Positions 3,792 to 34,406 of a DNA stretch of 64,000 nucleotides are shown piece after piece. A program made the translations under genes and the position numbers. The first letter of the stretch is position 1. Each line of letters begins with the position of its first letter. A model generated the notes under the pieces. The model was not told where the DNA came from. It did no database searches and saw only the letters and a program-made list of their open reading frames with translations. Source of the DNA: an uncultured Candidatus Saccharibacteria bacterium (GTDB lineage: Bacteria > Patescibacteriota > Minisyncoccia > Phycocordibacterales > UBA918); the NCBI GenBank assembly GCA_964402035.1, contig CAYOAM010000003.1:162657-226656 (forward strand). Reading direction: 5' to 3'.

Positions 3792-3816
3792 AAAGCAGGA
3801 CTGGTTCTAGGAAAGG

Positions 3817-4161: not shown

Positions 4162-4176
4162 TTTTCGATTTTCACC

Positions 4177-7057: not shown

Positions 7058-7079
7058 GTGCACCTGTCAGGACTCGAAC
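7058..7079 (-). repeat. 22-nt exact duplicate of the tRNA-Arg 3' end, att-like
   Basis: gtgcacctgtcaggactcgaac is identical to 7199-7220 and lies ~140 bp downstream of the intact tRNA. Confidence 0.75.
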
Positions 7080-7163
7080 ATTACATGTTCAGTTCAGGTT
7101 GTATGATAATTTCTTCCATTGGTCGAAATTATCGACAACCTTTTCGAGTCCATGGGCCTGAAA

Positions 7164-7190
7164 TAAAAAACCGGCATAAAGCCGGCTTTT
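7164..7190. terminator. Bidirectional hairpin (aaaaaaccggc-ataaa-gccggcttttt)
   Basis: GC stem flanked by an A-tract and a T-tract, between the tRNA-Arg gene and its duplicated 3' fragment. Confidence 0.55.
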
Positions 7191-7199
7191 TATTTCAGG

Positions 7200-7271
7200 T
7201 GCACCTGTCAGGACTCGAACCTGAAACGTCTCGTCCGAAGCGAGATATGATATCCATTTCACTACAGGTGC
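7200..7271 (-). tRNA. tRNA-Arg (anticodon UCG), CC encoded, terminal A not
   Basis: Manual fold. Acceptor GCACCTG / CAGGTGC, D-stem GTGA/TCAT, anticodon stem TCTCG/CGAGA, loop CTTCGGA, T-arm TCAGG-TTCGAGT-CCTGA. Confidence 0.75.
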
Positions 7272-7288
7272 ATGTGACACTGAGCTTA

Positions 7289-7978
7289 CTACCCTTTCAT
7301 TAAATATTCAAACTGCATTGATTGCCAAAATTTCATTTGACAAAGAAGCGCGTGGCTCTTAGGTACCTCTATACGAAGACACCCAATGTACCCTGGGCGT
7401 TTTTTAACGCCCAGGTTTGTTGGTTTATATACAGTTTTAACAAATTGTGCTTCTGAAACTCCAAGCTTTTTCATCCAAAGTGCCTCGAGATGTTCGTGTG
7501 CGTATGGTTTGTGAATATACAACCGATATCGCAAGGTTATACGCTCTCGTTGTACGAATTTCTCTAACCAATGAATCATGACGAGCGCCATTTCATAGTC
7601 AGAATTCGTGAATAAAAATTGATTATGTCGCCGTGCTCCCTCAGCCCAATACAACGCAATCCCGATATGAAATAGGGGATCATCCTTATACTGCTTAAAA
7701 ATTGTTTTTGCGGAAATAAAATACTCTTTTTCGCGGATAAGTCTGTTTCGCCTATGCACCGCACCTGCACGTATACGACCTCTTGTAATATTGCCCTCTT
7801 TTCTTTTTCTCAGAAAGATCTTTTCTTCGGCAGTTAACGGAAAATCTTTCAACCAGAGCGATAGGGAACTTTTCGACACCAAAACCTCTTTTAGAATTTC
7901 TTTGTAGCTTAAGCCCTGTCTTCTCAATTCTATTGCTCTATTTTTTTCTATTAGTTTAGGGACCATGTTACATTTCAT
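7289..7978 (-). CDS. Hypothetical DNA-binding protein with N-terminal HTH; possible LAGLIDADG-like endonuclease
   Basis: N-terminus 'ELRRQGLSYKEILKEVLVSKSSLSLWLK' resembles a resolvase/transposase-type HTH. 'HIGIALYWAEGARR' weakly resembles a single LAGLIDADG motif. The gene ends 18 bp from tRNA-Arg. Confidence 0.35.
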   Translation of the reverse strand: MKCNMVPKLIEKNRAIELRRQGLSYKEILKEVLVSKSSLSLWLKDFPLTAEEKIFLRKRKEGNITRGRIRAGAVHRRNRLIREKEYFISAKTIFKQYKDDPLFHIGIALYWAEGARRHNQFLFTNSDYEMALVMIHWLEKFVQRERITLRYRLYIHKPYAHEHLEALWMKKLGVSEAQFVKTVYKPTNLGVKKRPGYIGCLRIEVPKSHALLCQMKFWQSMQFEYLMKG

Positions 7979-8040
7979 AATAACATGGTTCGAACACCAG
8001 TCGAGTAGCTAAAATGCAAAAATGGTTCTAGAATGACGGT

Positions 8041-19226: not shown

Positions 19227-21026
19227 GTGGCGAGAGCATGCGATACTATAGACGTAATGCCTCCCGAGAAAAAAGCAACGGTACTCCGTGTCAGAACGTT
19301 TGCTGACGATATTAAACGTGCCGAAGGAGGGGCACCCACACACCTGCCGGGTGCATCGGCACAATCTCCGTCACACTCACTCGCTGATGCACTTGCAGCG
19401 CATGTTGATGACATAGCAGAACGACCAAAAACACCCGTGACGGTGCCTACCGACACCACCCCTCCACAACGTACGCAGGATCATTTTGATATTCGTCGTG
19501 CCGAATCAGATGGTATGGAGGAAGGTACCATCATCCAAGATCGAAAAGAAAAGGAGTGGTCATTTTTCGATGCGCTGAAAACATCTACCGAAACATGGTG
19601 GGCCACACGCGTACAACCGTTGTTTGAAAAAAAGAGCAACCAAGGGAAGGCGGATATTGCACCACTTTCACGCGGACCAAAGACTATTGTTGCTCCCGAC
19701 GCATTCACGATAGCACCCCGAGACGACCATGGAGCACTCCTCAAAAATATCCGCGGAAATGAAGAGCATCCGCTACAAAAAGAAGTGACGCCACAAACAC
19801 CCGCCCCGGCTATACGACCCCCAGCACCGATCACCACTGGCTGGCGTCGTATCAGCGAACCAAGAGAAGGAACCGCTGTTTCACATACCACAAGCGAAGA
19901 AGCACGTACCTATAAAGAAGATCTTCGTCGAGCGCTACCACAAAAAAATACCATCTCCCCGTCTCTTAAAACGAGCGCACCACTCCGCAGCATACCTCGC
20001 ACTGATATTGTCGCAAAAAACACCGCTCCCGTAGCACCGGATATACCAGAGCGAGAAGCGACACTTGCACGAGAGCGTCTAGCAGCTTTGGCGCACGAAG
20101 CAGCAGCGAGTGTCCCACAACCAAAACGAGTGTCTCGAGACATCCCTTTTATTCCACCAAAACTCACACGTACCGAAGCTCCACCATTGCGCACCTATCG
20201 CAACGACGTTCTGACCGATGTTAAAGCGCGCGATCTTTCAGCTCCAAAGATAGCTGCCGCTGAATATGTACGCCGTGACCAACTGGGTACCATGGGCATC
20301 CCTCAAGATCGCCCGCGTCTTATTTCTCGTATACTACCCATTTTCATTGTTTTGTTGGTGATCGTTGCTTTGAGTGCTGGTGGCTATCTCCTCTACCCAC
20401 TACTCACCAAAGAGTCTCCGATTGAAACAGTACGCGGGGTACCAGCCCTCTTTTCAACAGATGCACAAAAAGCATTGCCACTTCCTACAGAACGCGGTGA
20501 ACTTTTAAAAAACCTAAACACGCTACGTCTTGAAACGCCACTCAAAGACGGCGGATTTCTGCAACTATATGCGGAAATCAAAGACGGTGAAACGACACGC
20601 ATAGCAAAGACAAGCGACATTATGAAAGTGCTTGATCCACGAGCGCCCGGTGCTTTTATACGATCTCTCAAAGAAGAGAGTATGATCGGCGTCTACGACA
20701 GCACTCGTGCTCCATATATGATTTTCACAACCGACGCATTTACAACGGCATTTGCTGGAATGCTTGCATGGGAAGAGACCATGAGTGTTGATCTCGCACC
20801 ATTCTTTGGTGGTCCTGTACGGCGATCTTATGACGATACTGCACTTACAATCGATCAATCAAAACCTGCTCGTTTTACCGACATTGTCGTACGAAACAAA
20901 GATGTCCGCATGCTCTATGACGAATTTGGCGAAGAACGTATTGCCTACACCTTTGCGAACGAAAATACGATTGTGCTCACCACGAGTTCCAAGGCGCTTG
21001 ATGCACTAGTGAACGCACTTAAATAG
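19227..21026 (+). CDS. Hypothetical membrane-anchored Pro/Thr-rich protein
   Basis: 599 aa with a single TM helix (ISRILPIFIVLLVIVALSAGGYLLYPLL) after a ~370-aa low-complexity N-terminal region. Confidence 0.45.
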   Translation: MARACDTIDVMPPEKKATVLRVRTFADDIKRAEGGAPTHLPGASAQSPSHSLADALAAHVDDIAERPKTPVTVPTDTTPPQRTQDHFDIRRAESDGMEEGTIIQDRKEKEWSFFDALKTSTETWWATRVQPLFEKKSNQGKADIAPLSRGPKTIVAPDAFTIAPRDDHGALLKNIRGNEEHPLQKEVTPQTPAPAIRPPAPITTGWRRISEPREGTAVSHTTSEEARTYKEDLRRALPQKNTISPSLKTSAPLRSIPRTDIVAKNTAPVAPDIPEREATLARERLAALAHEAAASVPQPKRVSRDIPFIPPKLTRTEAPPLRTYRNDVLTDVKARDLSAPKIAAAEYVRRDQLGTMGIPQDRPRLISRILPIFIVLLVIVALSAGGYLLYPLLTKESPIETVRGVPALFSTDAQKALPLPTERGELLKNLNTLRLETPLKDGGFLQLYAEIKDGETTRIAKTSDIMKVLDPRAPGAFIRSLKEESMIGVYDSTRAPYMIFTTDAFTTAFAGMLAWEETMSVDLAPFFGGPVRRSYDDTALTIDQSKPARFTDIVVRNKDVRMLYDEFGEERIAYTFANENTIVLTTSSKALDALVNALK

Positions 21027-21478: not shown

Positions 21479-22423
21479 ATGATTGCCCGCGTCTTCTCGG
21501 CACAGCCAGCGGTTCAAGGAGGACATGTGGTCACGATCGAAACAGACCTCGCGAGAGGTCTGTATTCGTTTACGGTCGTCGGCCTCCCGGACAAAGCCGT
21601 CGAAGAAGCGCGCGATCGCTTGAGCGCCGCTATAAAGAATTCCGGTTTTGAATCTCCCAAAAGCAAAAATCACAAAATTATTATTTCATTGGCGCCTGCA
21701 GATTTGCGCAAAGAAGGGCCGCTCTTTGATCTTCCGATGGCCGTGGGGTACTTGATCGCCGCACACGACATACAAGCATCGGTTGCAGACACGTTAATAA
21801 TCGGTGAACTTGCGCTCGATGGCACCATACGTGGCGTGCGTGGCGCATTGCCGATTGTTCAGGTAGCAAAGAATGCAGGGTTCAAAACGGTCATCGTACC
21901 AAAAGAAAATGCGCTCGAAGCAGCACTCGTGCCTGAGATTGAAATCATTGCAGCCGGCACCCTCCTTGATGTCGTACGACACCTTGATCACACAAGGGAA
22001 GATCATCAACTACTCACTCCAGAGCCTCACACAGACATTATTCCAACGTGGAGCGAGAGCACTATATATCTTGAAGATATCAAAGGACAGGAAAGTGCAA
22101 AGAGGGGACTCTTGATTGCCGCAGCAGGACGACACAACAGCATCATGATCGGTCCACCCGGCACGGGGAAAACGATGCTCGCGCGCGCATTTCAAAGTAT
22201 GTTGCCACCGCTCTCTATAGAAGAAGCGCTCGAAGTCACCGCGATACATTCAATAGCTGGCACGCGCGACGAACCGGTGATAACACTCCCTCCTTTTCGT
22301 GCACCACACCACACAGCTTCACACACTGCGCTCGTGGGTGGCGGTATGCATCCGCGACCTGGGGAAGTCACCCTCGCACATCGGGGCGTACTTTTCTTAA
22401 AGTCAGTCCCACAAAACGTTTAG
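21479..22423 (+). pseudogene. comM: comM (YifB/Mg-chelatase-like AAA+ ATPase) 5' fragment, interrupted at the Walker-B 'GVLFL' by an inserted element
   Basis: N-terminal Lon-protease-like domain ('LPDKAVEEARDRL') and Walker A 'GPPGTGKTM'. The ORF ends 'LAHRGVLFL|KSVPQNV*'. The expected continuation 'DEFPEF...' resumes at 33138. Confidence 0.85.
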
Positions 22424-22621
22424 TCTTTCTAGAAAAGGTGCTTCTCTTAATATTAAGTAGCGAATCTTTTTTGAGGTGATTTATACATTCAGTGTAATCA
22501 GTAGGTAACAGTTGGTAAAATAAGTCACATGTTAAATTGTAGGACACACTTTATGAAAACAGTCCTTCAATAATTTATTGAACCAAATCGATTTTTCGCC
22601 AAAAAATGCTATATTTAGGCG

Positions 22622-23551
22622 ATGGATGACATCATAAACAGATCGATTTTAAAGAATAAAGGTAAGCTTTTGTCATACTATAGAGAGCAGGCAGCAGAGC
22701 TTATAAAAGAACTCAGAAGAGTTTACTCTGACAGCGAATATCGAAAACGAGCCGTTGCTGTAAATAATGGTCTTACAAATTTGAGAAAATCTCTTATTTC
22801 TAATTTATTGGAAAAAGCGGAGACCGAGTCTTGGTCTGCTGAGGAGGTATTGTCTGGAGTACTACTGGTGACATATACCAACTATGTAGTAATGATGGAA
22901 TCCAGAAATGATGTTTGGCCGTATGAGTATATGGCTTTTGCTCGTAGAATTGGTGAGTTGTGGGAACCATTCTGTCAGTTATGTTGGGTACATCCCGTAA
23001 AGGCTGGCATTTCATACATTGAACCTCCTGTGTATTCACATGTTAAAAATCAGCTTTTAGACAATATCAAATCTTACGTTAATGACCTAAAGCTGGAAAA
23101 GGAACAAAAGGATGTTTTGTTAAATCATTATGAAACTATCTCTGCACTGGTTAGTTCTGGTGAAATAAATCTTGAGCTTGATTTACACTTTAAATCAGGC
23201 GGGAAAAAATATGTCGTTGATTTTAAAAGTGGCTTTAGTTCTAACGAGAAAGGTAACACCAATCGACTATTACTTGTTGCAAATATCTACAAATCCCTAA
23301 ACGAGGGATACAATTGCCTACTTTTTGTAAGGTCAAACGAAGAAATGAACAATCATTATCTTCAAACACTTAAAAAGTCTGGTCTATGGACAGTTTACTG
23401 TGGAGAAGAAACCTATAAAATAGTAAGTACATACACGGGTTTTGACCTAGCGTCGTGGATGAAAAAAAATATTAACTGGGCTGAAGACTTCGATGAGAAA
23501 ATGTATGCACATTTAAAGCAAAATCAATTGCTACAGTATTTAGAATGGTAG
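22622..23551 (+). CDS. Putative PD-(D/E)xK nuclease (candidate restriction endonuclease)
   Basis: 'ELDLHF...YVVDFKSG' fits a D...(D/E)xK catalytic core. Its 3' end overlaps the start of the methyltransferase gene by 7 nt. Confidence 0.4.
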   Translation: MDDIINRSILKNKGKLLSYYREQAAELIKELRRVYSDSEYRKRAVAVNNGLTNLRKSLISNLLEKAETESWSAEEVLSGVLLVTYTNYVVMMESRNDVWPYEYMAFARRIGELWEPFCQLCWVHPVKAGISYIEPPVYSHVKNQLLDNIKSYVNDLKLEKEQKDVLLNHYETISALVSSGEINLELDLHFKSGGKKYVVDFKSGFSSNEKGNTNRLLLVANIYKSLNEGYNCLLFVRSNEEMNNHYLQTLKKSGLWTVYCGEETYKIVSTYTGFDLASWMKKNINWAEDFDEKMYAHLKQNQLLQYLEW

Positions 23552-25044
23552 ATAAAATTATTCAAGGAAAAAAACGTACTCATAGACAATACGCTTCATA
23601 CTATACAGATTCTGAACCAATCTTGTCTTACATGGTACAAAAACTTAACGTCGCCGAAGGCGATGCAATTTTCGAACCTTGTGCTGGTGACGGTGCCTTT
23701 ATAGAAAAAATCTTTTCAAAAAATTCAAGTGATATTTCGATTCACGCTGTTGACCTAAACCCCATTGCTGTCAATAATCTGAAAGAAAGATTTTCTTCAG
23801 CGAACATACTAGTGGAACAGGTTGATACCTTGCTCGACCGCTCTGTGTTGACTAAAAAGTATTCAAAAATAATTGGCAATCCACCATACGGAGCTTGGCA
23901 AGATTTATCAAAAAGAGATGAATTAAAAAAAATATATGGAGGTTACGTAAAAGAAACGTACACTCTCTTCTTACAGAAGTGCATTGATTTGCTTGAAGAA
24001 AATGGAAAGCTGGTATTTATTATCCCAGATACTTTTCTTGCATTACATATGCATAAGGGAACCAGAGCGAAGATTCTAACCAAAACACGAGTCGAAGAAA
24101 TCCTGTTAATACCATCAAATTTCTTTCCTGGGGTTAATTTTGGTTATGCAAACCTCTGCATAATTACACTTGTTAAAAGTGAATCTGTGGCAGGTAATAC
24201 TATAAAGATTGCCTCGGTTAGAGACTCTGTTGAAAAGTTAACAACGCTTGCAAGTGGAGACTATTCTGAGTGTCATTCTTTGGAATCTCTTTTGCAAGAT
24301 GACGTTTTAAACTCAGAAAATCTTTCGTTTTTTATTGGAAGCAACGAATCATCAAGAAGCTTAATGAAAGAGGATGTTCTCAAACTTGGAGACATAGCGG
24401 ATTGTGTTACCGGTTTCTATTCAGGGGACAATAAGAAATACATCAGGGTTCTAAATAAGGACATTAAGAGGTCGAATGGCTACTCAATAGTAGATAGTAA
24501 AGAAGTCGAATATACCCATTTTCCAGCTGACATTTTAAAACAAGGATTGACGAAAAAAAGCTATATTCCGTACTTAAAAAATGCGATTGGTACTTTTTCA
24601 ATTGAGACCCAATGGTTCATTCAGTGGGACAAAAACACAGTTCAGGAATACAAAAAAGACAAACGAGCTCGATTCCAAAATTCTGAATTTTATTTCAAGG
24701 AAGGTATAGGAGTACCAATGATTAAAAGCAGTAATACACACGCAGTATTGTTAGAGAAAAGGTTGTTTGACCAGTCCGTTGTTGGGGTCTTCCCCAAAGA
24801 TTTGAAACATAGAGATTATCTGCTAGCTTTCCTCAACTCAAAAACTTGCAGTAAGTTACTAAACATTATTAATCATACGGCTAATAATTCCGCAAACTAT
24901 CTCAAAAAACTCCCTATCATCGTCAATGACGAGGGTGTAAAAGTGGTCAATAAAATAATGTCGAAATACTTTGAAAGTAAGGACAAAACCAAAGCTCTTG
25001 CAGAAATCGATGAATTCTTTACTAAACTCTACAATTTGGACTAA
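23545..25044 (+). CDS. N6-adenine DNA methyltransferase (gamma-class, NPPY motif)
   Basis: SAM-binding 'FEPCAGDGAF' (motif I) precedes 'IIGNPPYG' (motif IV), followed by a long C-terminal target-recognition region. Confidence 0.75.
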   Translation: MVDKIIQGKKRTHRQYASYYTDSEPILSYMVQKLNVAEGDAIFEPCAGDGAFIEKIFSKNSSDISIHAVDLNPIAVNNLKERFSSANILVEQVDTLLDRSVLTKKYSKIIGNPPYGAWQDLSKRDELKKIYGGYVKETYTLFLQKCIDLLEENGKLVFIIPDTFLALHMHKGTRAKILTKTRVEEILLIPSNFFPGVNFGYANLCIITLVKSESVAGNTIKIASVRDSVEKLTTLASGDYSECHSLESLLQDDVLNSENLSFFIGSNESSRSLMKEDVLKLGDIADCVTGFYSGDNKKYIRVLNKDIKRSNGYSIVDSKEVEYTHFPADILKQGLTKKSYIPYLKNAIGTFSIETQWFIQWDKNTVQEYKKDKRARFQNSEFYFKEGIGVPMIKSSNTHAVLLEKRLFDQSVVGVFPKDLKHRDYLLAFLNSKTCSKLLNIINHTANNSANYLKKLPIIVNDEGVKVVNKIMSKYFESKDKTKALAEIDEFFTKLYNLD

Positions 25045-25270
25045 CGAGGAGTCTATTTACTTTTCTTCAAAAAGAAATACTATTTACTGACAACTTAATA
25101 TAAATGACCTAACCCTCAGTCGTAAGATTGAGGTATGGTCGAAAACCGTTGAAGACAAACACCCCATTATCAGGGCGCGTCTTCAACGTTATAAGGGGAA
25201 ACTCTTATAGGACTTCGGTCCACCTGGTAGTGGGTTTTTTGTATCTCGTTACCAGAATCTTACTTATTTA

Positions 25271-25864
25271 ATGAATAGATTTATGAACGAGAAAACTAAC
25301 GTTTTGGATAAAAAAATACCATGGTGGGCTGGACTAGCATTTTTTATATTTGTTATAAGTACGTTACTGTACGGACTTTTAGGAGGCTTTTCTACAGCTT
25401 CGAAAGTTGAAGAAGTTTCAAAGGAAGAAGTTAAAACTGACCAGCCAGCCAAAGAACCAATAATACAAATTGCGACCTTGTACAACATTCCAATGTCGAA
25501 GTTGTCTGAGCAATTTACTGCCCCACTGAACAGTGCGGGGAATCTTGTTATAGATACCGATGAGTACAAGCTACTGATTGAAAGTAAAAACGGCGTGAAC
25601 TCAGACTATGTGGAAGTGCAACTCAAAGCTCTTGGTAGTTGTGCTAAATCTGGTGTACCCCGAAACAGTGATGAGGCACTGCAACTAGTAGGGTTGAAAC
25701 CGCAGCTAAAGGGTAACCCGACCAATCCTCCTGCTGGGATAGCGAATGGTGCGATTGAGTACTGTGACTATCCGAGTGATAAATTCTCCGTCGGTGCTTC
25801 ATGTATGTATGACGGTGGATATTACGATGTCAGCCTGTCTCCACGTACATATTGTGGCAACTAG
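25271..25864 (+). CDS. Hypothetical secreted/membrane-anchored Cys-containing protein
   Basis: N-terminal TM/signal segment (WWAGLAFFIFVISTLLYGLLGG). The C-terminal half contains 4 Cys. Confidence 0.45.
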   Translation: MNRFMNEKTNVLDKKIPWWAGLAFFIFVISTLLYGLLGGFSTASKVEEVSKEEVKTDQPAKEPIIQIATLYNIPMSKLSEQFTAPLNSAGNLVIDTDEYKLLIESKNGVNSDYVEVQLKALGSCAKSGVPRNSDEALQLVGLKPQLKGNPTNPPAGIANGAIEYCDYPSDKFSVGASCMYDGGYYDVSLSPRTYCGN

Positions 25865-26526
25865 GGTACGTTTAGTTGTCCAGAAAACGTTAGCTACGGC
25901 ATTCGATAGCGGAAAGGCGAGGTAATATACCAACCTCTGTAAAAGTTATTCACAGTCATTGAGTTACAGAACAATAATATTTTTTAGTCAAAAACCCTTA
26001 TTTAAAGGGGTTTTTTGCTTATAGCTTCTTCTATATACTTCCAGCTCCTTATAGATTTTTATAGATAATTACATCTTCTTCTACGTGTACGTCAAGACCA
26101 TCTAGGTGTAGTGTTCGGAGTAACAATGACTAATCAGCCAGAACAGAACATTGAGCATGGTCCCGCAGGTGTCGAATGGACACTTCTCTTTGGGAAGCTA
26201 CTGACCGATAAGTCAGCGTCGAAATTATCAAATAAATCTGAAACCGACACCGGCAATCAGATTGCAATCAAAACAAACAATGAAAACACTTATAACGAAG
26301 CAAACGAATTTAACCAAGTCACCTATAACTCTCGCTGACCTCGTGAACACTGGCTACGCTCATATCAGCACTGACATTAACAAAGCAAGAGAGAATATCG
26401 AACGATATGCAACTACCGCAGTTCGAGTGATTGCACCAAAGAATTGTAGAGATATAACAATCGACTTATCAAAACCTGACAAGCCGAGAGTGAGATACAA
26501 GATTACCAAGAATATGACGAGCTAGC

Positions 26527-27228
26527 ATGGCTAGAAAGAAAGTTCAGCAAAACGAAAGATTTCCTGGCTTTCCAAAAAGCATCAATCGTGGATTCTTTCG
26601 GTATCCAACAATTCTTGAAAAATACTGGTGTGACCTCGAAGGTTCTGAACAAAAGGTTTTAGACTACATCCTTCGTCAGACTAAGGGTTGGGGCAAGAAT
26701 TTTGACAAAATCAGCTTGTCTCAGTTTGCGAAAGGAAACGGAAAAAATACAAAGGGTGCAGGTATTAGTGAAACGCAGGCAGCTGCTGCGCTTAAAGCGC
26801 TGGAAGTGAAAGGCTACATAACAGTCGAACGACGAGCTAGAAAGACGAATGTTATTCACCTCAAGTATGACGAGACTGTCAGTGATAGTCCGAAGTGTAG
26901 CGATGAGATTCGAGAACTCATCATGCAATTTGAACCAGTCGCTAACCACTTAGTAAAGGACTACTTGGAAGATGAGCGTGAAATATCTGCTCTTGAAGAG
27001 CTTGTCACCTATTACGGCTACCATAAGGTGAGAGATTGTATCTCGGTACTCAGGGATTCAAACCCAGAGCAGTACATGCCTACGATAATCTCACCCAGAG
27101 ACCTCAGAACAAAGATGCCTAGTCTATTATCGGCTATTGCAACTATGCAGATAGAGCACGATACGTTTTGGCAGGTCAATCTAGATAATGATAGACGTTT
27201 CGTCTCGAAAATTGAAAAAATACTTTGA
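26527..27228 (+). CDS. Winged-helix protein, possible replication initiator / DnaD-like
   Basis: 'QKVLDYILRQTKGW...ISLSQFAKGNG...ISETQAAAALKALEVKGYITVER' resembles the N-terminal wHTH of phage/plasmid replication initiators. Confidence 0.35.
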   Translation: MARKKVQQNERFPGFPKSINRGFFRYPTILEKYWCDLEGSEQKVLDYILRQTKGWGKNFDKISLSQFAKGNGKNTKGAGISETQAAAALKALEVKGYITVERRARKTNVIHLKYDETVSDSPKCSDEIRELIMQFEPVANHLVKDYLEDEREISALEELVTYYGYHKVRDCISVLRDSNPEQYMPTIISPRDLRTKMPSLLSAIATMQIEHDTFWQVNLDNDRRFVSKIEKIL

Positions 27229-27493
27229 GGTGGTTAGGTGATTGGTACAAAAGTTGGATATCTGTATCACAACTGATACCAGGAAAAAGTGAAACTGTAC
27301 CAATCTGTTATCAGACAATAGATAGATAGGTATCTACAAAATTGTATATATTCACACTCACTTGAAAGTGAGTGTAGATAATTCTGGAAATAAGATTATT
27401 TAACGACCAGTAATTAAATAGGGAGTCCCTACCTCGCTTGTTAACAGTCACACTACACAACATATATACAAAGTTGTAAAGATATGGAATTAT

Positions 27494-27560
27494 ATAACTG
27501 AGAAACCGTTGTTTTAAGCCAAATTTCCGGCTGTGGCAACTACCCCTTCTCAGTTATATG
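27494..27560. repeat. 13-14-bp inverted repeats (TATATAACTGAGAA ... TTCTCAGTTATAT) separated by ~40 bp, upstream of the recombinase genes
   Basis: Read directly from the sequence. Candidate recombinase binding or crossover site. Confidence 0.5.
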
Positions 27561-27708
27561 AACCATATTGACGACATTAAAGACTACTTAATCGCAGATG
27601 AGATTCAGCGCATTCAGTCGTTGTCACATGAACAATTGGTTTGTGAACTGATTGAAGTGAAAACACGAGATATAGAGCTGGGCAAAATCACCATTAACAC
27701 TAACGTAC

Positions 27709-28128
27709 ATGGAAACTAAGAAAACACTAATTATTAACTCAAAGAGCTTGAACGGGTTGCGCTACTTCGGCATAACTAAAAAGTGTATCGAACATTGCCA
27801 GACACAAAAATGGGCTATCGAACCCGATAACATTCATAGCGAAATAAACCTCACTCCTTACGTAGAGTATGAAGGGGTACCTGAGAACGAACCAGTCTAC
27901 ATGATTGAAAAAAATAGAGTTGCGTGTCTGCTCACTTATTCAATCGAAAGCCTTGGTCTATCACTACGTGAACTGCTAGAACTCATGCATTTACTTGAAA
28001 AGCATGAGGTGAGGCTCGTCTCAGTAACTGAGAAACTAGAACCCGACACTCATTCGGGAAGACTGAGGATTCACCTAGCCGCAATAACCGCTGAGTTTCG
28101 ACGTGCGGATAATGCTAACTATCTATGA
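27709..28128 (+). CDS. Resolvase-like catalytic-domain remnant lacking the Ser nucleophile region
   Basis: 'LSLRELLELMHLLEKHEVRLVSVTEKLEPDTHSGRLRIHLAAITAEFRRAD' matches the C-terminal half of a serine-recombinase catalytic domain. There is no 'RVSTxxQ' motif. It overlaps the start of the next gene by 4 nt. Confidence 0.5.
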   Translation: METKKTLIINSKSLNGLRYFGITKKCIEHCQTQKWAIEPDNIHSEINLTPYVEYEGVPENEPVYMIEKNRVACLLTYSIESLGLSLRELLELMHLLEKHEVRLVSVTEKLEPDTHSGRLRIHLAAITAEFRRADNANYL

Positions 28129-29882
28129 ATGACCCAGCTACTGTAAAGAACAAACGTGTTGCTATATACCTCCGTGTCTCCACTGACGAACAGGCTAAGG
28201 AGGGTCACTACGGTTTGAAAGTTCAAGAAGATAGACTTCGACAGTTTTGTGCCAGCCAAGGTTACGAACTCAGTGAAGAACATGTTTACCGTGACGAGGG
28301 CTACTCTGGGACTCTTAAAGTTGAAATGCGACCTGGTCTATCTGCCCTGTATGAAGCAGCAAGGGAAAAACAGTTTGACACGTTGATTGTCTACAAACTC
28401 GATAGACTATTTCGTAATCAAACCAAGCTACTAGTATCACTTGAACAGCTCATAGATTATGGCGTAGGTTTCCAATCAGCAACGCAGTCGTTCGATACGG
28501 ATACATCAACAGGTCGTCTCATGATGCAAATTCTGGGTTCCTTTGCTGAACACGAGCGAGAACTGATTCGTGAACGAATGACAGCCGGTAAACTTCGCGC
28601 AGCTAAAGAGGGTAAATGGGTCACTGGTGTTCCGCCTTACGGATATCGAGTTGACGAAAAAACACAAACACTCATTCCACAAGCTGAAGAAGCTGAGGTT
28701 GTCCAGAAATTCTACGAGTGGTTGGTTTATGAAAAATGCTCTCTGCGTGAAATCACTAAGCGTGCAATAGAACAAAACCTACCGACCCCGAAGCACAAGA
28801 ACGCGAAGGGTAAGAATAGAGTTGGCGGAAAATGGTACAAACGAACCATTAATCGAATTCTGGTCAATGAAGTTTATACAGGTCAGTTTTACTACAACAA
28901 GTACAAACGACCATTCCAATACCTGAATGCTGTACTGGACGAACAACATCAACGACCACAAGAAGACCATATTCTTATCACTGTTCCAGCAATCATTTCA
29001 TCCGATTTGTTTGAGAAGTCGATACAGCAACTGCAAGACAATCGTCGATTCCAAAAACGAAACGAGAAGCGTGTCTACCTGTTTGCTGGACTACTCTATT
29101 CAGGAATATCGGGACGTAAGTTGCAAAGTGGTTATCAAACACCCAAAAAGGATAAGACAACCCCGATTCTAGGGAAGTACTACCATGTATACGTTCCAGA
29201 CATAGACAGGAAACCTACTGATTGCGATAAAAATAACCCTGAAGGGCAATGTGCTGAAAGTCGATTGATTCCTATTTGGGATACGTTGGTCGCGATACTG
29301 AGCGACCCGAAGAACGTAATACCGCAACTGGAAGAGTACACCTTTAAGACCAGCAACGAGGTCAAAGTGAAGAAGGAGTTAGTGCTACTCGAAAAGCAAT
29401 TCGAGACACTTAGAGTAAAGAAGCAACGTGTTCAAGAAGTGTATCTGGAAGCACAAATGGATAAGGACGACTACAACAGTCGGATGAAGCAAGTGAGAAA
29501 GGACGAAAAGGATATAGTCATCCAGAAACAGAAACTGTCACAACTACTCCTAAAACAAGATGAACAAAAAGACCGAGATAAAATCATTCAATCACTCTAC
29601 GGCAGACTAAAAGCCAGAATCAGTAACGTGACCTACGAGGAAAAGCAATACATTCTTCGTTTGTTTGTCGAAAAGATTACTTTACACCACAAGAAAGGAT
29701 ATGCGGAGGTAGCATTCAAGTTCCCACTAAACACGAATGTTCCAACCACTGCACCTGCCAGCATGACAGAGGGTAGGCATATGCGACTGGTACTGCATGT
29801 GAAGATTTATTCTGAAAAAGAACGACGAATTCAAATCTTTCAAAGTGTTCCAGAGATGTGTAAAAAACCAGTAGCAGTATAG
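28125..29882 (+). CDS. Large serine recombinase (integrase)
   Basis: N-terminal 'VAIYLRVSTDEQ' resolvase catalytic domain, a recombinase domain, and a C-terminal coiled-coil/zinc-ribbon-like region. 585 aa. Confidence 0.85.
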   Translation: MNDPATVKNKRVAIYLRVSTDEQAKEGHYGLKVQEDRLRQFCASQGYELSEEHVYRDEGYSGTLKVEMRPGLSALYEAAREKQFDTLIVYKLDRLFRNQTKLLVSLEQLIDYGVGFQSATQSFDTDTSTGRLMMQILGSFAEHERELIRERMTAGKLRAAKEGKWVTGVPPYGYRVDEKTQTLIPQAEEAEVVQKFYEWLVYEKCSLREITKRAIEQNLPTPKHKNAKGKNRVGGKWYKRTINRILVNEVYTGQFYYNKYKRPFQYLNAVLDEQHQRPQEDHILITVPAIISSDLFEKSIQQLQDNRRFQKRNEKRVYLFAGLLYSGISGRKLQSGYQTPKKDKTTPILGKYYHVYVPDIDRKPTDCDKNNPEGQCAESRLIPIWDTLVAILSDPKNVIPQLEEYTFKTSNEVKVKKELVLLEKQFETLRVKKQRVQEVYLEAQMDKDDYNSRMKQVRKDEKDIVIQKQKLSQLLLKQDEQKDRDKIIQSLYGRLKARISNVTYEEKQYILRLFVEKITLHHKKGYAEVAFKFPLNTNVPTTAPASMTEGRHMRLVLHVKIYSEKERRIQIFQSVPEMCKKPVAV

Positions 29883-29886
29883 GCCG

Positions 29887-30507
29887 TTAATCTTGCTTAT
29901 TAAGTGAGTGGATGACGGCCTTTGCTATACCTACAATTTCGAAGGAATCTGATTTTTTAATTTTCAGGTCTTTATATTCAGGATTGCTAGATCGAAGTAT
30001 TATTTCATTACTCTCCTTAATAACCTTTTTTATTTTAGGTTCACCGTTGTGTAGTACTAACGAAAGTTGGCCTGGAGAATCTAAGGTTTCATCCTTCTGA
30101 AACAGAACTAAGTCACCAGAGTTAATGTTTGGAGACATTGAGTCACCTTTTGCTAACACCGCAAAGATAGAGCTGGGGTCAGAGATATTAAACATCTTTG
30201 TAGATATAGAAATCTTTTCTTCGAGGTTAGACTCACTTACCAAGTCACTAGCATGACCGCAGGAAGCCATTCCATACCTACTGATGGTAACGACATCTTC
30301 TACAGGGCTTTTCAAAACCTCAAAAGTTGAGTTGTCGCCTCTTCGGAGGTAGCCCTTATTTTCTAATTGACGTAAATGGTGAGCCACATTCTGTGCGCTA
30401 CCAAGGTCAGCCTCTTTTGCAATTTGCCAAAGACTCATCTCAGACAAGGCTTCTTCATTTTCAATCAAAAAATTCAGCAGCTTTTGCTGGCTGGGGTGTA
30501 ATTGCAT
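29887..30507 (-). CDS. LexA/CI-like repressor (S24 peptidase family)
   Basis: N-terminal LexA-type winged helix ('SQQKLLNFLIENEEALSEMSLWQIAKEADL...VAHHLRQLENKGYL') and a C-terminal S24 domain ('GDSMSPNINSGDLVLF', Lys in 'KIKKV'). Confidence 0.75.
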   Translation of the reverse strand: MQLHPSQQKLLNFLIENEEALSEMSLWQIAKEADLGSAQNVAHHLRQLENKGYLRRGDNSTFEVLKSPVEDVVTISRYGMASCGHASDLVSESNLEEKISISTKMFNISDPSSIFAVLAKGDSMSPNINSGDLVLFQKDETLDSPGQLSLVLHNGEPKIKKVIKESNEIILRSSNPEYKDLKIKKSDSFEIVGIAKAVIHSLNKQD

Positions 30508-30744
30508 AACAAGAGCAGTATATATGACAGGGAGACATTTGTACACACTTTATTAACAGGAAACGAAACATTTGACGTTTTCCACCGCTACCGTACAATA
30601 GTACGAAGAAAGCCAGCTTGCGCTGACTTTCGAACGAATATTATTCCTCTTCAGGTTAGTGTAACACCACTTTCCTGAAGGTCCGACCGACTGGTCTTAC
30701 TTTACATAGTATTCCAGTTGGGCGGGCTAATCAAGTATTGGCCT

Positions 30745-30963
30745 ATGCGTAAGTATTACGTAAACCACAACGAACAGCCGGAGGGAGAACATGAGGTACA
30801 TGACTGGAATGCGAATTGCTCGCACCCACCACTCATGCAAAATCGTGTTGACCTCGGTTATCACACCACGTGCCGTGGTGCAATCTTTGAGGCACAAAAA
30901 CTTTATCCGCACTCACATGTAAACGGTTGCGCTTACTGTGTTCCAGACTGTAACTCTGACTAG
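30745..30963 (+). CDS. Small Cys/His-rich protein (possible Zn-binding), divergent from the repressor
   Basis: ~72 aa with C/H spaced as H..H..C..H...C...H.H..C..C..C. Confidence 0.35.
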   Translation: MRKYYVNHNEQPEGEHEVHDWNANCSHPPLMQNRVDLGYHTTCRGAIFEAQKLYPHSHVNGCAYCVPDCNSD

Positions 30964-30965
30964 TT

Positions 30966-31169
30966 ATGGCTCAATACGAACGCAACTCCGGCAAACGCTG
31001 GACAGTGAAAGAGGAAAAGCAACTCCGTTCTCTAGCAAAGGACAACACACCGACACGTGTCATTGGGTTGAAACTTGGCCGCCCTGTAGGGGGAGTGCAA
31101 GCTAAAGCACAAGAACTGGACGTGAGTCTGAAACCAACCAATCAGTCTCCGTACAATCGAAAGAAGTAG
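30966..31169 (+). CDS. Small basic hypothetical protein
   Basis: 67-aa ORF immediately following. Confidence 0.3.
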   Translation: MAQYERNSGKRWTVKEEKQLRSLAKDNTPTRVIGLKLGRPVGGVQAKAQELDVSLKPTNQSPYNRKK

Positions 31170-31374
31170 CAGAACCTTTACAGAGCATAATAGAATCCCT
31201 GCTTGTCAGGGGTTTTGTTATCATTGTGGGACAACTTTCCTAATAGTTGTCCTCCAGTTTATAAGATTTTGAACCCCAAATACTGCCATCTATCGACTTT
31301 TCCGTCATTGGTGGTATTTTTGTTTTACGTGCTATGACGCAAAAACGCCAAGTACCTAAGGAAAAAATCCAAAT

Positions 31375-32586
31375 ATGTGGGTTATCGTTAATGGAACATA
31401 CTCAACCGAGATTGAGGATAGCGTTGTTGAACGTGTTCTTAACCTATACCCAGAAGAGCGGCTTCTGAAACGTAAAGTATTTCAAAGTGCTTTTGCAACA
31501 GGTTCTATCAAACTGTCTGACCTAAAAGATGAATGCGATAAACTACTCATCCCATGGCAGATGTTCCTACTGGATACAGAAAACCACAAGAAGCAAATTG
31601 AACATATTGAAAAGACCAGAGCTGATAAGATTTCAGCTCGACTTCTGGCTAAACGAAAGGGTTCTGGTGATGTTACTTCAAAACGCATTGTAGACCGACT
31701 TATTCGCTTGCAAGGTTTTGTTTCAGCAACAACCTCACTACCGAACAATCCCTATTGCGATTCGCTGAAGAGCAAGAGTGTAAAAGTGGCCGCAAAGCAT
31801 GTAATCGACTATTTCAAAATTGACCAAAACTGGTTCTGGTCAACTCGTGGGAAAGGAACAGCGTTGTCAAAACTAATTTCTTTGGTAGAAGCAAAAAATA
31901 TCAATGTGTGTCAGGGTGTTCTCCAGAATAAAATGCTACCCCATCACTCTGTTGTAGCCGGTGATGTATATAAAAATACCAGCGGTTTTTCTATTAAGGA
32001 CGACAAGGTACCATTTGTATTTTTGCCGAGTGAAATCAACCCTGATGAGGTTGAGAGTCGTCAAATTTTTACACTTATATATCTCTTGGTAATTATTGGT
32101 CTTGGTAAGTATGACTACTACCTAGAGAAGGATTTTAGTACCAAAATGGTAGGAACAGACCGAATCTCTCGCAGAATTTTCGATATTACAACAGAAATTC
32201 TAATCCCCGAATCGGAAACTGATAAGTTGCGAAGTAAGACAATCACGGTATCTATGCGTGACGAGTTGGCGAGTAAGTTTAAAGTCTCACCATCAGCTCT
32301 TATTACCACTTTGCGAATCAGAAAAATAATTACTAAACCAGAATACAACGCATTAATGCCAGAGAAATATAAGCCTGGTACAAGAAAGTCTGGTCCAATG
32401 AATACTCAAAAAATTTCAACTTCAGTACAGAAATTCTGTGGACGAATTGCCGTAACTCACGTCAATGAAGGAATCAGAAAAGGTGGAAGGGGTGGAGGGG
32501 TTGAAAGTATTCAAGCGCAGTACATGCTTTTTGGTGCTGTAAACAAACCGCACTACCATGACTACCGTAAACAAATGGGACTATGA
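31375..32586 (+). CDS. Hypothetical protein (403 aa), partner of the downstream PIN-like gene
   Basis: Clean ORF that overlaps the next gene by 4 nt (ATGA). Confidence 0.45.
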   Translation: MWVIVNGTYSTEIEDSVVERVLNLYPEERLLKRKVFQSAFATGSIKLSDLKDECDKLLIPWQMFLLDTENHKKQIEHIEKTRADKISARLLAKRKGSGDVTSKRIVDRLIRLQGFVSATTSLPNNPYCDSLKSKSVKVAAKHVIDYFKIDQNWFWSTRGKGTALSKLISLVEAKNINVCQGVLQNKMLPHHSVVAGDVYKNTSGFSIKDDKVPFVFLPSEINPDEVESRQIFTLIYLLVIIGLGKYDYYLEKDFSTKMVGTDRISRRIFDITTEILIPESETDKLRSKTITVSMRDELASKFKVSPSALITTLRIRKIITKPEYNALMPEKYKPGTRKSGPMNTQKISTSVQKFCGRIAVTHVNEGIRKGGRGGGVESIQAQYMLFGAVNKPHYHDYRKQMGL

Positions 32587-33023
32587 ATCTAATTGACACT
32601 GTTGGTATCAATCACATTTTTGAAAAATCTCTTAAAATGAGTGAGGTTTATTATCTTGCTCCAGACATTTCTGAGGAAGTCGAGATGACAGAAATGATTC
32701 ACAGTAAACGCATCCCTGATGAGGTCAGATACGCAGCAGAGGTTGATGAATTTGATGAGTCAGTATATTTGCACCATTACAAAATTGCACTGAACTCCTA
32801 TAAAAAACGGTCATTCTATAACATGAAAGGATTTGGTGATGTATCAATTATTGCTACAGTGAAAACAATTCTAGATGGATATAAAAAACAGGATACTGAA
32901 CAGCTTTTTTCAACAAAAGAACCAGTCATTGTTTATACTGGTGATACAAACCTTACAGAAGTCTTAAATGCTGAATTTGATAGCTCGGACGTGCAGGTAA
33001 AAGGGATTGCCGACATTAAATAG
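32583..33023 (+). CDS. PIN-like domain protein
   Basis: 'MNLIDTVGINHIF' N-terminus and acidic residues spaced as in PIN domains (D5, E~35, D~96 'FGDVSI', D~121 'TGDTNL'). Confidence 0.4.
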   Translation: MNLIDTVGINHIFEKSLKMSEVYYLAPDISEEVEMTEMIHSKRIPDEVRYAAEVDEFDESVYLHHYKIALNSYKKRSFYNMKGFGDVSIIATVKTILDGYKKQDTEQLFSTKEPVIVYTGDTNLTEVLNAEFDSSDVQVKGIADIK

Positions 33024-33134
33024 ACGATTCCAACTGGGTGACTGTTGTTGCAGTATCTGTTCCTCAGTTTTGGCGCACTGAGTTGAGTAACAGTTATTGT
33101 AGAAGGTGTCCTACAAAATTGAGGGACAATAACA

Positions 33135-33737
33135 TTGGATGAATTTCCTGAATTTGACCGAAGATCAATTGATACGTTGCGCCAACCGCTTGAAGATAAA
33201 GTAGTTTCAATATCGCGCGTACATGGACAGGCAACATTTCCAGCAGACTTCACCCTCGTTGCCGCTATGAACCCCCATCGTGGTACCCACGATGGCAGTG
33301 ACCCGAGTGACAGCATGCTCGATGCATACAAAAAGAAAATTTCAGGGCCCATCATGGACCGCATCGACCTTTGGCTCACTGTTTCACATATACCGTATGA
33401 GGAACTCGCACAAAATGAGAAGCATATCGATCAAAATCGTGACGAAACCAAACGCGCACGAGAACAGGTACAGGATGCACGTCTCAAACAACGGCAACGC
33501 TACGGAGTTGCAACAAAAACAAACGGTGTGCTCTCTGCGCGAGATATTGAGATACATGTGCGCTTGGCGAAAGAAACAGAAACACTACTCATTGAATCTG
33601 CCAAAAAACTAGCACTCTCTCCGCGCGGCTACCACAGACTCATAAAAGTCGCCCGCACTATCGCAGATTTAGAGGGCGCAGATGATATTAAAACCACGCA
33701 CGTCCTCGAGGCGCTCCAATACCGCGCTCGGATATGA
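33135..33737 (+). pseudogene. comM: comM 3' fragment (Mg-chelatase C-terminal domain)
   Basis: It begins '(L)DEFPEFDRRSIDTLRQPLEDKVVSISR...', the direct continuation of ComM after Walker B. Confidence 0.85.
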
Positions 33738-33770: not shown

Positions 33771-34406
33771 TTATTGCAACTTGTAGCCACACCCCCACAT
33801 TGGCTCAATGTTTAGCCCATCAGTGCCAAATTCCCTCAGAGCTTTCCTCAATCTGCACACCAATACGTCAACGATTTTTGCGTTAGGAACCGTGTCCCGT
33901 CCGCGATACAACCAGGACAGGATACCTGACTTTGTAACGGCGCCATCGGAGTTCTTGATCAAAATTGCAAGCAGAAGCCCTAGTTGTCTTGAGAGTTTGA
34001 CGCACATGTCTCCACTCTCAAGATTAAATGCTGCCCTCGTTCGCACACCAGGCATTCCCTCTTGATGTGGGTTCTGCCGCAATGTGATCTTTTTATACGT
34101 TAATGTCTCCATGATCCCATTGTCTAACTCGGGAAAAAGAGCGGCACTTACCAAACGATGGGCCGATGCATGAGTTGTGTGCAGCGCATTGGGTGTATCT
34201 TGTGGCGCGGTCAACCACTCTCCGACCATAGCCTCAGAAAGTCCCGGGTAGATGCTTGCTGCTTGAGCTCGTGTCCATGCACCCTCCCTGACGCCATCCA
34301 CTATGTACGCTTTTCGTCGTGGCGTAAGTCGCCGCCACGTATATGCATCCATCTCCAGGTCAATCAGTTTAGCAAATCTCATTGCGCGTACTCCTGTAAG
34401 GTTCAA
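33771..34406 (-). CDS. Transcriptional regulator with C-terminal OmpR/PhoB-type winged helix
   Basis: C-terminal 'LSWLYRGRDTVPNAKIVDVLVCRLRKAL...GYKL' resembles a trans_reg_C domain. The N-terminal domain is unrecognised. Confidence 0.45.
   Translation of the reverse strand: MNLTGVRAMRFAKLIDLEMDAYTWRRLTPRRKAYIVDGVREGAWTRAQAASIYPGLSEAMVGEWLTAPQDTPNALHTTHASAHRLVSAALFPELDNGIMETLTYKKITLRQNPHQEGMPGVRTRAAFNLESGDMCVKLSRQLGLLLAILIKNSDGAVTKSGILSWLYRGRDTVPNAKIVDVLVCRLRKALREFGTDGLNIEPMWGCGYKLQ

Follow-up and report, generated by a model that had tools for sequence, protein, structure and literature searches.

Small serine-recombinase elements that interrupt comM in Patescibacteria, with arrays of attP-like sites and the LOOT RNA

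What has split a competence-associated gene of a Candidatus Saccharibacteria bacterium in the middle of an ATPase motif, and what determined the position of the break? The question is raised by a 64,000-nucleotide stretch of contig CAYOAM010000003.1 (assembly GCA_964402035.1, forward-strand positions 162,657 to 226,656), referred to below as the window and numbered from its first letter, in which comM (yifB) is interrupted by 10,738 bp with the split point at 22397/33135. The N-side open reading frame (ORF; 21479-22423, 314 aa) reads ...LAHRGVLFL and then KSVPQNV before a stop; the C-side ORF (33135-33737) has a TTG start and reads (L)DEFPEFDRRSIDTLRQPLEDK. Joined at the TT common to both sides (22397-98 and 33135-36), the halves give a 1,521-nt ORF encoding a 506-aa ComM, which aligns with intact Patescibacteria YifB/ComM proteins of 505-511 aa at 100% coverage and up to 74% identity. 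The alignment is free of gaps at the joint, which lies inside the invariant GVLFLDEFPEF block (Walker-B). Consistently, the Pfam profile Mg_chelatase is divided between the two fragments, positions 2-116 matching the N fragment (6.3e-47, next to ChlI at 1.8e-41) and positions 112-206 the C fragment (3.3e-25, next to Mg_chelatase_C at 2e-25), and the ComM/YifB domain set, composed of the Lon-like N-terminal domain, the AAA+ Mg_chelatase domain with Walker A/B and Mg_chelatase_C, is complete across both. A preliminary description of this DNA, made from its letters alone, had proposed a break precisely in the Walker-B motif and two halves that join contiguously, and both proposals hold; of the eight unrelated codons that it counted before the stop, seven are wholly foreign, and the number eight is reached only with the hybrid TTA Leu codon. 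The insert had also been judged AT-richer than its host by eye, which the measurements bear out: its GC fraction is 0.396 versus 0.458 +/- 0.008 in equal-length host windows (minimum 0.448), and in tetranucleotide usage it is at a distance of 0.323 from the host, versus 0.102 +/- 0.012 for host windows. An intact comM elsewhere had been named as evidence to the contrary; neither this nor any other further comM-like sequence was found within the 64-kb window.

We put the probability at roughly 0.8 that the insert is a small integrative replicon, neither phage nor conjugative, which was integrated into a comM attB by a large serine recombinase (LSR) via an attP with a matching core, and which belongs to a family of such elements in Patescibacteria. 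The junctions are the first line of evidence. The two ends, attL and attR, have the dinucleotide TT in common and nothing more, and there is no target-site duplication. When the element ends are joined, they form TTGAGGGAC-AATAACA-TT-AAAGTCA-GTCCCACAA, an imperfect palindrome centred on the common TT, with inverted half-sites in the arrangement TTGnGGGAC-N7-TT-N7-GTCCCnCAA. Six copies of the half-site motif are present in the window versus 1.5 expected; two of them, in inverted orientation and 7 nt away from the core on either side, constitute the junction arms. The same 7-nt spacing between half-site and core recurs in the reconstructed attP sites of eight related loci. A 2-bp crossover without target duplication, flanked by inverted half-sites, is the signature of an LSR. 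Excision at the same dinucleotide would restore comM exactly and in frame, and the insertion, as it stands, should inactivate the ComM AAA+ helicase. Three further half-site copies (TTGNGGGAC) lie in host DNA, at window positions 20112-20120, 46162-46170 and 52329-52337.

The element encodes an LSR of 585 aa (Table 1), as had been anticipated. Its catalytic Ser19 lies in AIYLRVSTDEQ, and Y15, R17 and S19 are invariant in 26 relatives. Among PDB sequences, the nearest solved relatives are the catalytic domain of TP901-1 (3e-20) and SPbeta SprA (1.7e-14); the C-terminal 280 residues align with SprA residues 141-509, and about 405-500 look like coiled coil by eye. Directly upstream lies p139. A role as functional partner or regulator of the LSR was considered for it and rejected; a relic in decay accounts better for the stepwise loss of the nucleophile motif from copy to copy: aligned with LSR N-termini, the relic of locus L001 (9538-10020) keeps YLRAS, that of L014 (10001-10480) has Ser changed to Ala, and in the window the motif is gone. 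The LSR of L009 (8104-9797) is chimeric, with an N-terminal part 47% and a C-terminal part 78% identical. Together, the upstream relics and this chimera suggest that the recombinase gene has been replaced, or its domains exchanged, more than once. A search of IMG/VR with the integrase family returned relatives of at most 30% identity, and recombinases of phage WO (26.7% identity) are among the best phage-database matches of the window LSR.

The second line of evidence is the family. On long contigs, relatives of the window integrase with 76-87% identity were found, and each examined element sits between ComM N- and C-fragments; four assemblies carrying the window's own integrase have the identical split arrangement. 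A scan of species-representative genomes, based on integrase alignment, added more copies with LSR identities down to 41% and with comM broken at residues ~303-313. The copies come from metagenome-assembled genomes (MAGs) labelled Saccharibacteria, Kaiserbacteria, Nomurabacteria, Paceibacterota, Buchananbacteria or 'Patescibacteria group'. Across 13 loci with LSR identities of 41-87%, the break falls at one common comM nucleotide, namely at the first two bases of the codon before the Walker-B Asp, and all 13 have the geometry YTGNGGGAC-N7-core-N7-GTCCCNCAR. The core equals the start of the host codon in these 13 loci: AT in ATG, TT in TTG or TTA, GT in GTT, and CT in CTT or CTG. The residue encoded by the crossover codon is Leu in 103 of 120 ComM homologues, Met in 14, Val in two and Cys in one. 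The elements are 8-15 kb long; a single one (L007) is inverted, and its core is the self-complementary AT. The host flanks of L001 match those of L004 at 98.5% and 99.4% identity, while the two elements share the LSR region only, at 76%; such different elements in near-identical hosts point to recent independent integration or replacement. A literature search found no description of comM-targeting elements in Patescibacteria or Saccharibacteria, and no close relative of the element was found in IMG/VR.

A further group of elements (L066, 3284-11085; also L064, L065 and L067, reached via L053) has the same backbone, consisting of R-M (restriction-modification) genes, the LOOT RNA, a small membrane protein, a RepO-like initiator (46%), a small ORF and an LSR. 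This LSR is unrelated, has 572 aa and a Zn-ribbon domain, and the 3' end of its gene overlaps the tmRNA gene, which places the element at ssrA; ordinary host genes flank it on both sides, and there is no comM. L066 nevertheless keeps a contiguous comM-type attP, TTGTGGGAC-AGACTTT-AT-AAGAAGA-GTCCCTCAA, located as circular permutation predicts. It follows that the arrangement P-core-P' exists as one piece and that integration modules have been exchanged, and the site confirms the attP reconstructed from the junctions. L053 was considered as a free circle and rejected, being the internal attP of an ssrA-integrated relative. Separately, in a gammaproteobacterial MAG (CAYJKP010000002.1; L015, 4460-12423) an LSR of 28% identity splits comM just before the Walker-A P-loop (GHNLL / FSGPPGSGKT); as this is a different place in the gene, separate LSR lineages target each of its ATPase motifs.

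How might an element tied to a protein-coding attachment site cope with drift of the target codon? LSRs need identical central dinucleotides in attP and attB, and it is this dinucleotide alone that sets polarity, as in Bxb1 and phiC31. When mismatches were tolerated, 475 kb of locus sequence contained 27 attP-like sites and shuffled sequence 0-1; three of the 27 are incidental (two inside LOOT, one the attR of L008 itself). Three silent sites accompany the used one in the window (Table 1). In L001, L005 and L006 the cores follow one another in the order CT, GT (GC in L001), TT and then AT, the last being used for integration; in the window the order is CT, GT, the used TT, and AT just past the junction, i.e., the same circle opened one site earlier. 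Each class of site is found both used and silent. The TT class is used in the window and silent in L001, L005 and L006, with a common P' arm AAAGTC(A/T)-GTCCC, and the P arm at the window's attR is orthologous to these silent sites. The AT class, used in L001, L004, L005 and L006, is silent in the window, with GAAAACA as common P' spacer; the GT class, used in L009, is silent in L003 and L004, with an identical P arm GAGTGAC-ACTTATT; and the CT class, used in L011, is silent in five elements (window, L001, L005, L006 and L009). Over these five the silent CT site is identical at 32-34 of 34 positions amid flanks that cannot be aligned. On the LSR strand, each of the 17 cores that are not palindromic is CT, GT or TT, and the complements do not occur there. 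Because LSRs require matching central dinucleotides, the simplest and most likely reading of these sequences is an array of orthogonal attP sites, one for each attB codon variant, which would open different comM alleles to integration. Because the cores differ, deletions between sites of the array would be prevented as well. A literature phrase search for a natural element with a multi-core attP array returned engineered multi-attP designs only, a result that does not prove that no such element has been described.

We thus imagine the following course of events. The LSR would have recombined one attP of a circular element with the attB in the comM coding sequence, with strands crossing over at TT, the opening dinucleotide of the Leu codon that directly precedes the Walker-B Asp-Glu. 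Of the array, the site that matches the host codon (CTN, GTN, TTR or ATG) would be used, and the others would stay silent inside the element; the host codon here is TTG, and so the TT site would have been chosen. The same rule of core matching probably governs the whole family, and the LSR may well be active at present. Excision would need a recombination directionality factor (RDF), for which the 53-aa protein encoded directly upstream of the recombinase is a candidate by position. The element would replicate through its RepO-like protein, and inactivation of comM would benefit it by limiting transformation-mediated curing, while its R-M and toxin-antitoxin-like modules would stabilise the element or defend the host. 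Transfer between cells might occur by transformation, by a helper phage or in vesicles.

Besides the array, the family has an RNA as a constant component. The window copy of LOOT scores 71.4 bits against a gathering score of 46.4 over model positions 1-121. On 11 element copies the helices of the Rfam model are 87-97% paired, with many compensatory changes. An additional pseudoknot, supported by covariation, is formed by 25157-25174, in the apical region of the long hairpin, which pairs with 25223-25240, a segment ending in a U-run; its helix of 17 pairs has 97% of cells paired across the same 11 copies and compensatory double changes at six pairs, figures that stem from few and related sequences and from a structure derived from the same alignment. 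LOOT lies on the LSR strand in ten comM-type loci (window, L001, L005-L008 and L011-L014). It is also present in the ssrA-type elements with their different LSR, and a remnant is seen in L009. In a Levyibacteriota MAG (L016, 9219-9354, minus strand), a LOOT-like RNA (nhmmer E 1.2e-10) stands beside an LSR of 31% identity at 10001 on the opposite strand, with no comM nearby; the association of LOOT with LSRs may thus reach Microgenomates. More than 120 matches to a gapped LOOT pattern in IMG/VR were all chance by an nhmmer screen.

LOOT is invariably followed, at a distance of 49-72 nt (4 nt in L011), by an ORF whose small product has a membrane anchor or signal sequence at its N-terminus; which protein this is varies with the subfamily. 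In the window it is p197, whose family is very small (19 representatives among 1.84 billion proteins); its structural model reaches a pLDDT of 87 and has only moderate resemblance to DUF4309 and to toxin-immunity proteins. In L014 (6325-7389) the membrane-anchored protein in this position has, by eye only, a staphylococcal-nuclease-like motif (DGDTIKV...GMDTPE). LOOT is a backbone component of the element family, and it may act as a terminated small RNA or as the leader of the downstream gene.

From the comparison of loci, the conserved backbone appears to consist of LOOT, the gene for the small membrane-anchored protein, the replication initiator, the 53-aa protein and the LSR, around which variable cargo, probably for addiction or defence, is arranged; in the window this would be the R-M pair, the S24 switch and the toxin-antitoxin-like module. 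A more far-reaching proposal is that these are Patescibacteria-wide LSR mini-replicons, which could be called LOOT elements, with a fixed and ordered orthogonal attP array in which each site serves one synonymous or near-synonymous comM Walker-B codon, and with pseudoknotted LOOT and the downstream surface-protein gene as an essential life-cycle module. We advance it tentatively and rate its chances at slightly less than even.

Table 1. Features of the interrupted comM locus and its element (window coordinates unless a locus is named)
Feature	Position	Strand	Remarks
comM (yifB) N-terminal fragment	21479-22398	+	Lon-like/ChlI domain, Walker A; ends at first two bases of the Leu codon preceding Walker-B Asp-Glu
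attL	22373-22423	.	B arm, TT core (22397-22398), P' arm AAAGTCA GTCCCACAA; half-site 7 nt from core
Silent AT-core site	22537-22570	.	TTGTAGGAC ACACTTT AT GAAAACA GTCCTTCAA; ~140 nt inside left end; orthologous to AT sites used in L004/L006
Type II restriction endonuclease	22622-23551	+	Variable cargo; PADLOC REase_II 7.9e-86, full-length match; missing from relatives
N6-adenine DNA methyltransferase with TaqI_C-like specificity domain	23545-25044	+	Variable cargo; Eco57I 1.9e-17, N6_Mtase 2.2e-12, TaqI_C 1.1e-5; PADLOC MTase_II 9e-31
LOOT RNA (Rfam RF03000)	25106-25240	+	Rfam part 25106-25221; 3' extension 25223-25240 (CCTGGTAGTGGGTTTTTT)
p197	25271-25864	+	Conserved backbone protein; N-terminal membrane anchor, Cys-containing ectodomain
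Phage_rep_O-type winged-helix replication-initiator-like protein	26527-27228	+	Pfam 4.6e-7, 30.7 bits versus cutoff 28.7; PHROG 678 8.4e-10
p53	27558-27719	+	Small conserved protein, directly upstream of recombinase in every case
p139	27709-28128	+	Decayed recombinase catalytic-domain relic; Pfam Resolvase profile positions 59-127 only; no Arg-x-Ser nucleophile motif
Large serine recombinase, 585 aa	28125-29882	+	Pfam Resolvase (PF00239) 6.7e-40, Recombinase (PF07508) 5.3e-19 (residues 188-305); PHROG 95 integrase 2.4e-105
S24 LexA/CI-type autocleavable repressor	29887-30546	-	Variable cargo; start probably Met14; Peptidase_S24 3.3e-21, LexA_DNA_bind 1.9e-7
p81 and p67	30718-31169	+	Divergent from repressor; p81 PHROG 4298 (function unknown) 3e-18; p67 D5-like transcriptional regulator, PHROG 323 1.7e-8
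Silent CT-core site	31224-31257	.	TTGTGGGAC AACTTTC CT AATAGTT GTCCTCCAG; resembles CT site used in L011
p403 and p146, two-gene module	31375-33023	+	4-nt overlap; bracketed by attP-like sites
Silent GT-core site	33083-33116	.	TTGAGTAAC AGTTATT GT AGAAGGT GTCCTACAA; directly before used P arm; corresponds to GT sites of L003-L006 and to the used GT site of L009
attR	33119-33161	.	P arm TTGAGGGAC AATAACA, TT core (33135-33136), B' arm GGATGAATTTCC...
comM C-terminal fragment	33135-33737	+	Walker-B DE onward, AAA+ lid, Mg_chelatase_C
attB, in silico			…GTACTTTTC-TT-GGATGAATTT…
attP, in silico			…GGGACAATAACA-TT-AAAGTCAGTCCC…
LOOT RNA in L001	5193-5339
LOOT RNA in L005	5583-5729
LOOT RNA in L066	5795-5937

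The gene content accords with what the preliminary description had read from the ORFs, i.e., an R-M-like pair, an S24 LexA/CI-type repressor in a divergent switch, a winged-helix protein resembling replication initiators, and no phage structural genes (Table 1). The genes for the restriction endonuclease and the methyltransferase are adjacent with a 7-nt overlap and form a type II R-M pair. Counterparts of the Phage_rep_O-like initiator are 39-46% identical in L003/L004, L009 and L066, and those of p53, which matches no family, are 59-74% identical and in the same position in L001-L006, L009 and L011. The repressor gene is convergent with the LSR gene and divergent from p81/p67; its product scores 75 bits against the LexA model TIGR00498, under the cutoff of 111, and a sigma-70-like promoter with a weak consensus match lies at 30572-30599. 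The module of p403 and p146 is a candidate toxin-antitoxin or defence pair. For p403 there are weak matches to Peptidase_M78 (0.0028) and to PADLOC RmrA, the Zn-peptidase/HTH antitoxin of RosmerTA defence (2.5e-4 to 9e-4), as well as one to PHROG 2439 (3.4e-11), and nothing among PDB sequences; for p146 no match was found in Pfam, PHROGs, PADLOC (including RmrT), NCBIfam or PDB sequences (phmmer), its single-sequence AlphaFold model has a pLDDT of 27.7, and the PIN-like reading in the preliminary description goes back to motifs (LIDT, GDVSIIATV, YTGDTN) that are seen by eye only.

Neither the ORFs of the element nor the backbone ORFs of L001 gave a structural Pfam or PHROG match for capsid, portal, terminase, tail or lysis genes, for which a length of 10.7 kb leaves no space, and relaxase, coupling and type IV secretion families were absent from the window ORFs (Pfam, NCBIfam) and from the precomputed Pfam annotation of the relatives' genes. 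Might the elements then be phage satellites comparable to PICIs or to the Vibrio PLE, i.e., parasites of a Patescibacteria phage that hijack the capsids of their helper and use LOOT and the small ORFs in induction or packaging? Their size of 8-15 kb would suit this, as would a content of integrase, replication module (RepO-like or PrimPol-helicase) and many small orphan ORFs without structural genes; several cargo genes belong to PHROG families, and the elements have no transfer machinery of their own. We consider it unlikely all the same, because genes recognisable as functioning in capsid remodelling, as a terminase small subunit or in packaging interference are absent, the IMG/VR contigs that were screened yielded neither a family member nor a copy of LOOT, a helper phage is not known, and natural competence, which the hosts are likely to possess, offers a different way to spread.

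A different alternative takes the precision of the insertion as its starting point. If a signal such as DNA damage were relayed by the S24 repressor to the LSR, precise excision would give back comM, and the element would act as a regulated switch of gene integrity, akin to active lysogeny. That a crossover at TT would yield an intact gene, and that an autocleavable repressor adjoins the LSR, fit this idea. So does the state of the split gene, which has changed at seven of 255 invariant positions (3-11 in intact homologues) and has neither stops nor frameshifts, the halves being intact in relatives too. However, the lack of decay is equally explained by recent insertion, and the element turnover in near-identical hosts supports recency. 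The repressor is peculiar to the window element and has no counterpart in any of the relatives, and no excision product has been seen. In L003, moreover, which is 99.9% identical to L004 (4018-6951 versus 3760-6951) save for a deletion at the left end, the P' arm is missing, and a 977-aa ORF joins the comM N-fragment in frame with a type IIG-like N6 methyltransferase; such a copy is immobilised and decaying, and its comM is permanently broken. On balance, a switch seems improbable to us.

The internal attP-like sites could, conversely, have little to do with codon variants and represent relics of module exchange or boundaries at which cargo cassettes enter and leave, loosely like composite SCC islands with their repeated Ccr sites. 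Silent sites do bracket cargo modules, namely a 222+230-aa pair in L001, L005 and L006 and the p403-p146 pair in the window, as cassette boundaries would. The p403-p146 module is 88-92% identical between the window (31375-33023) and L003/L004 (L004 13650-15298), whereas the LSRs are 77% identical, and from this difference cargo modules seem to move between elements; L066, for its part, retains a comM-type attP that is presumably of no use to its ssrA-type LSR. Yet relics would not remain identical at 32-34 of 34 positions amid unalignable flanks, nor would the order of the distinct cores and the orientation of the sites stay fixed. Each class serves as the integration site in some host, with cores that correspond to host codons. 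Finally, LSRs normally do not join attP with attP, and distinct cores would block the excision of a cassette. We therefore hold a mere cassette boundary to be a rather poor explanation of the sites. That the insert is a degraded prophage remnant or an assembly artefact is highly implausible despite a few phage-family relatives (RepO, the CI-like repressor, PHROG 4298), because 13 independent assemblies have the same compact architecture with intact att arms and LSR and without structural genes, and the four assemblies of the window element agree with junctions precise to the base. An artefact was accordingly rejected, as were Tn7-like elements, integrative and conjugative elements and prophages, whose defining genes were not found; in the test for Tn7-like/AbaR elements, there were no transposase (Tns) genes, and the junctions share 2 bp only.

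Several observations weigh against the integrative replicon with its attP array. All four assemblies of the window's element are integrated; a circular attP junction and a same-species empty site, which the preliminary description had suggested looking for, did not turn up, and the nearest intact comM is only 74% identical. Among metagenome contigs, the exact attP pattern of the L001 group had no matches and a broader pattern had 24, about the number expected by chance, of which L053 alone is real; no attP was found in IMG/VR, and no excised circle was found. The Zn-ribbon PF13408 was not detected in the window LSR or its close relatives, and no RDF was identified. Agreement with the consensus is poorer in the window's silent sites (7+7, 8+6 and 6+7 of 8+8 positions) than in the used one, so some of them may be in decay, and their position around cargo modules suits a cassette boundary. 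The loci sampled are modest in number and in part share descent, a second and intact comM may lie elsewhere in the genome beyond the 64-kb window, and ComM may not serve transformation in Patescibacteria.

Two features of the surrounding host DNA may be recorded here. At the closest intact comM (L068) the neighbourhood is as at the window's C-fragment, followed by genes for a LysM-M23 peptidase, UvrD and KsgA. Between the comM C-fragment and the LysM-M23 peptidase gene, the window has a gene for a 211-aa Trans_reg_C protein (OmpR/PhoB-type winged helix; 33771-34406, minus strand), and no gene is called at the equivalent position of L068. Far upstream, at 4500-8000, the GC fraction dips to 0.375 (5-6 kb) and 0.405 (7-8 kb); nearby are tRNA genes for Pro-TGG (4572-4642), Gly-GCC (6111-6182) and Arg-TCG (7198-7271), with unannotated ORFs of 133, 211 and 229 aa among them. 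This region may be another small foreign segment, or just tRNA-rich intergenic DNA.

The insertion into comM is in itself ordinary, and it is the array and LOOT that carry the interest. Few mobile elements of the candidate phyla radiation (CPR) have been characterised, and this family is widespread across CPR classes, with fast turnover in near-identical hosts. If the array works as proposed, it shows how an element whose attB lies in protein-coding sequence keeps pace with codon drift: of the whole site, only the central dinucleotide is intolerant of mismatch, and the element would carry one site per codon. It would, moreover, equip one integrase with a natural set of orthogonal att pairs whose attB already exists in practically all Patescibacteria genomes, an attractive prospect for genetic work in a phylum so difficult to manipulate. 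LOOT, hitherto an orphan, gains a defined genomic context, which would be its first biological context if it is indeed part of an essential module, together with an extended pseudoknotted structure, and its function becomes testable. The conflict between competence and mobile elements would extend to CPR bacteria; we speculate that disrupting comM, and not the genes for DNA uptake, might spare the nutritional use of imported DNA.

How does the window element compare with known systems? The preliminary description had thought a serine-integrase element in comM of a reduced genome unusual, a premise that proves wrong, because Mg-chelatase/ComM is the commonest known LSR target and because such an insertion is known from Wolbachia. 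According to one survey, no LSR target is more enriched than homologues of Mg-chelatase/ATP-dependent proteases, into which 12.4% of the site-specific LSRs that it predicted insert, and an enrichment of competence genes is seen among the targets (Durrant 2022, PMC10083194). In Wolbachia, the magnesium chelatase gene is where the majority of the sr1WO recombinases of phage WO integrate (Bordenstein & Bordenstein 2022, PMC9203015). The surveyed elements resemble the window's in recombinase class and target family, with many divergent LSR clusters converging on the disruption of a competence-associated gene; in its main text, however, the survey makes no mention of a Patescibacteria family, of LOOT or of multi-core attP arrays, and the present family consists of 8-15-kb replicons without phage or conjugation genes. 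Likewise, sr1WO recombinases direct insertion into the comM homologue of a reduced genome, leaving gene halves on either side, but with 40-65 kb WO is a complete tailed phage and has the structural modules that the window element lacks; the identity of the recombinases is low (26.7%). In Gram-negative bacteria, comM is a recognised hotspot for other mobile genetic elements (Croucher 2016, PMC4774983; Tuffet 2024, PMC11441513; 2025 review, PMC12378983), and the reason proposed is that inactivation of ComM protects the element from removal by transformation (Croucher 2016, PMC4774983; 2025 review, PMC12378983). AbaR/Tn6022 islands and tyrosine-integrase elements thus have the target in common with the window element, and the anti-curing rationale carries over, but they use Tn7-like TnsABC(D) or tyrosine integrases, other insertion positions and target duplications, in contrast to a 2-bp crossover and the absence of such genes here.

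Closer parallels to the mode of insertion are found outside comM. Listeria A118/phi10403S in comK, SPbeta (SprA/SprB) in spsM and the skin element in sigK interrupt their target genes with base precision by means of an LSR, and excision restores the gene; in SPbeta, a small RDF gene adjoins the integrase gene, a position analogous to that of p53. These are prophages or remnants thereof with one attP and with developmentally or infection-regulated excision, whereas the window element has several attP sites and is known from sequence alone. In gene content, Vibrio cholerae PLE and other satellites come near, being small LSR-integrating islands that encode a replication initiator of their own along with many orphan ORFs and lack structural genes; what separates the window element from them is the lack of an identified helper, of packaging or interference genes and of sequence similarity. 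The array as proposed would have its counterpart in serine-integrase assembly, in which one integrase acts on several engineered att pairs that are kept exclusive by the 2-bp core alone. Their logic is the one that we propose for the natural array, but those sets are man-made.

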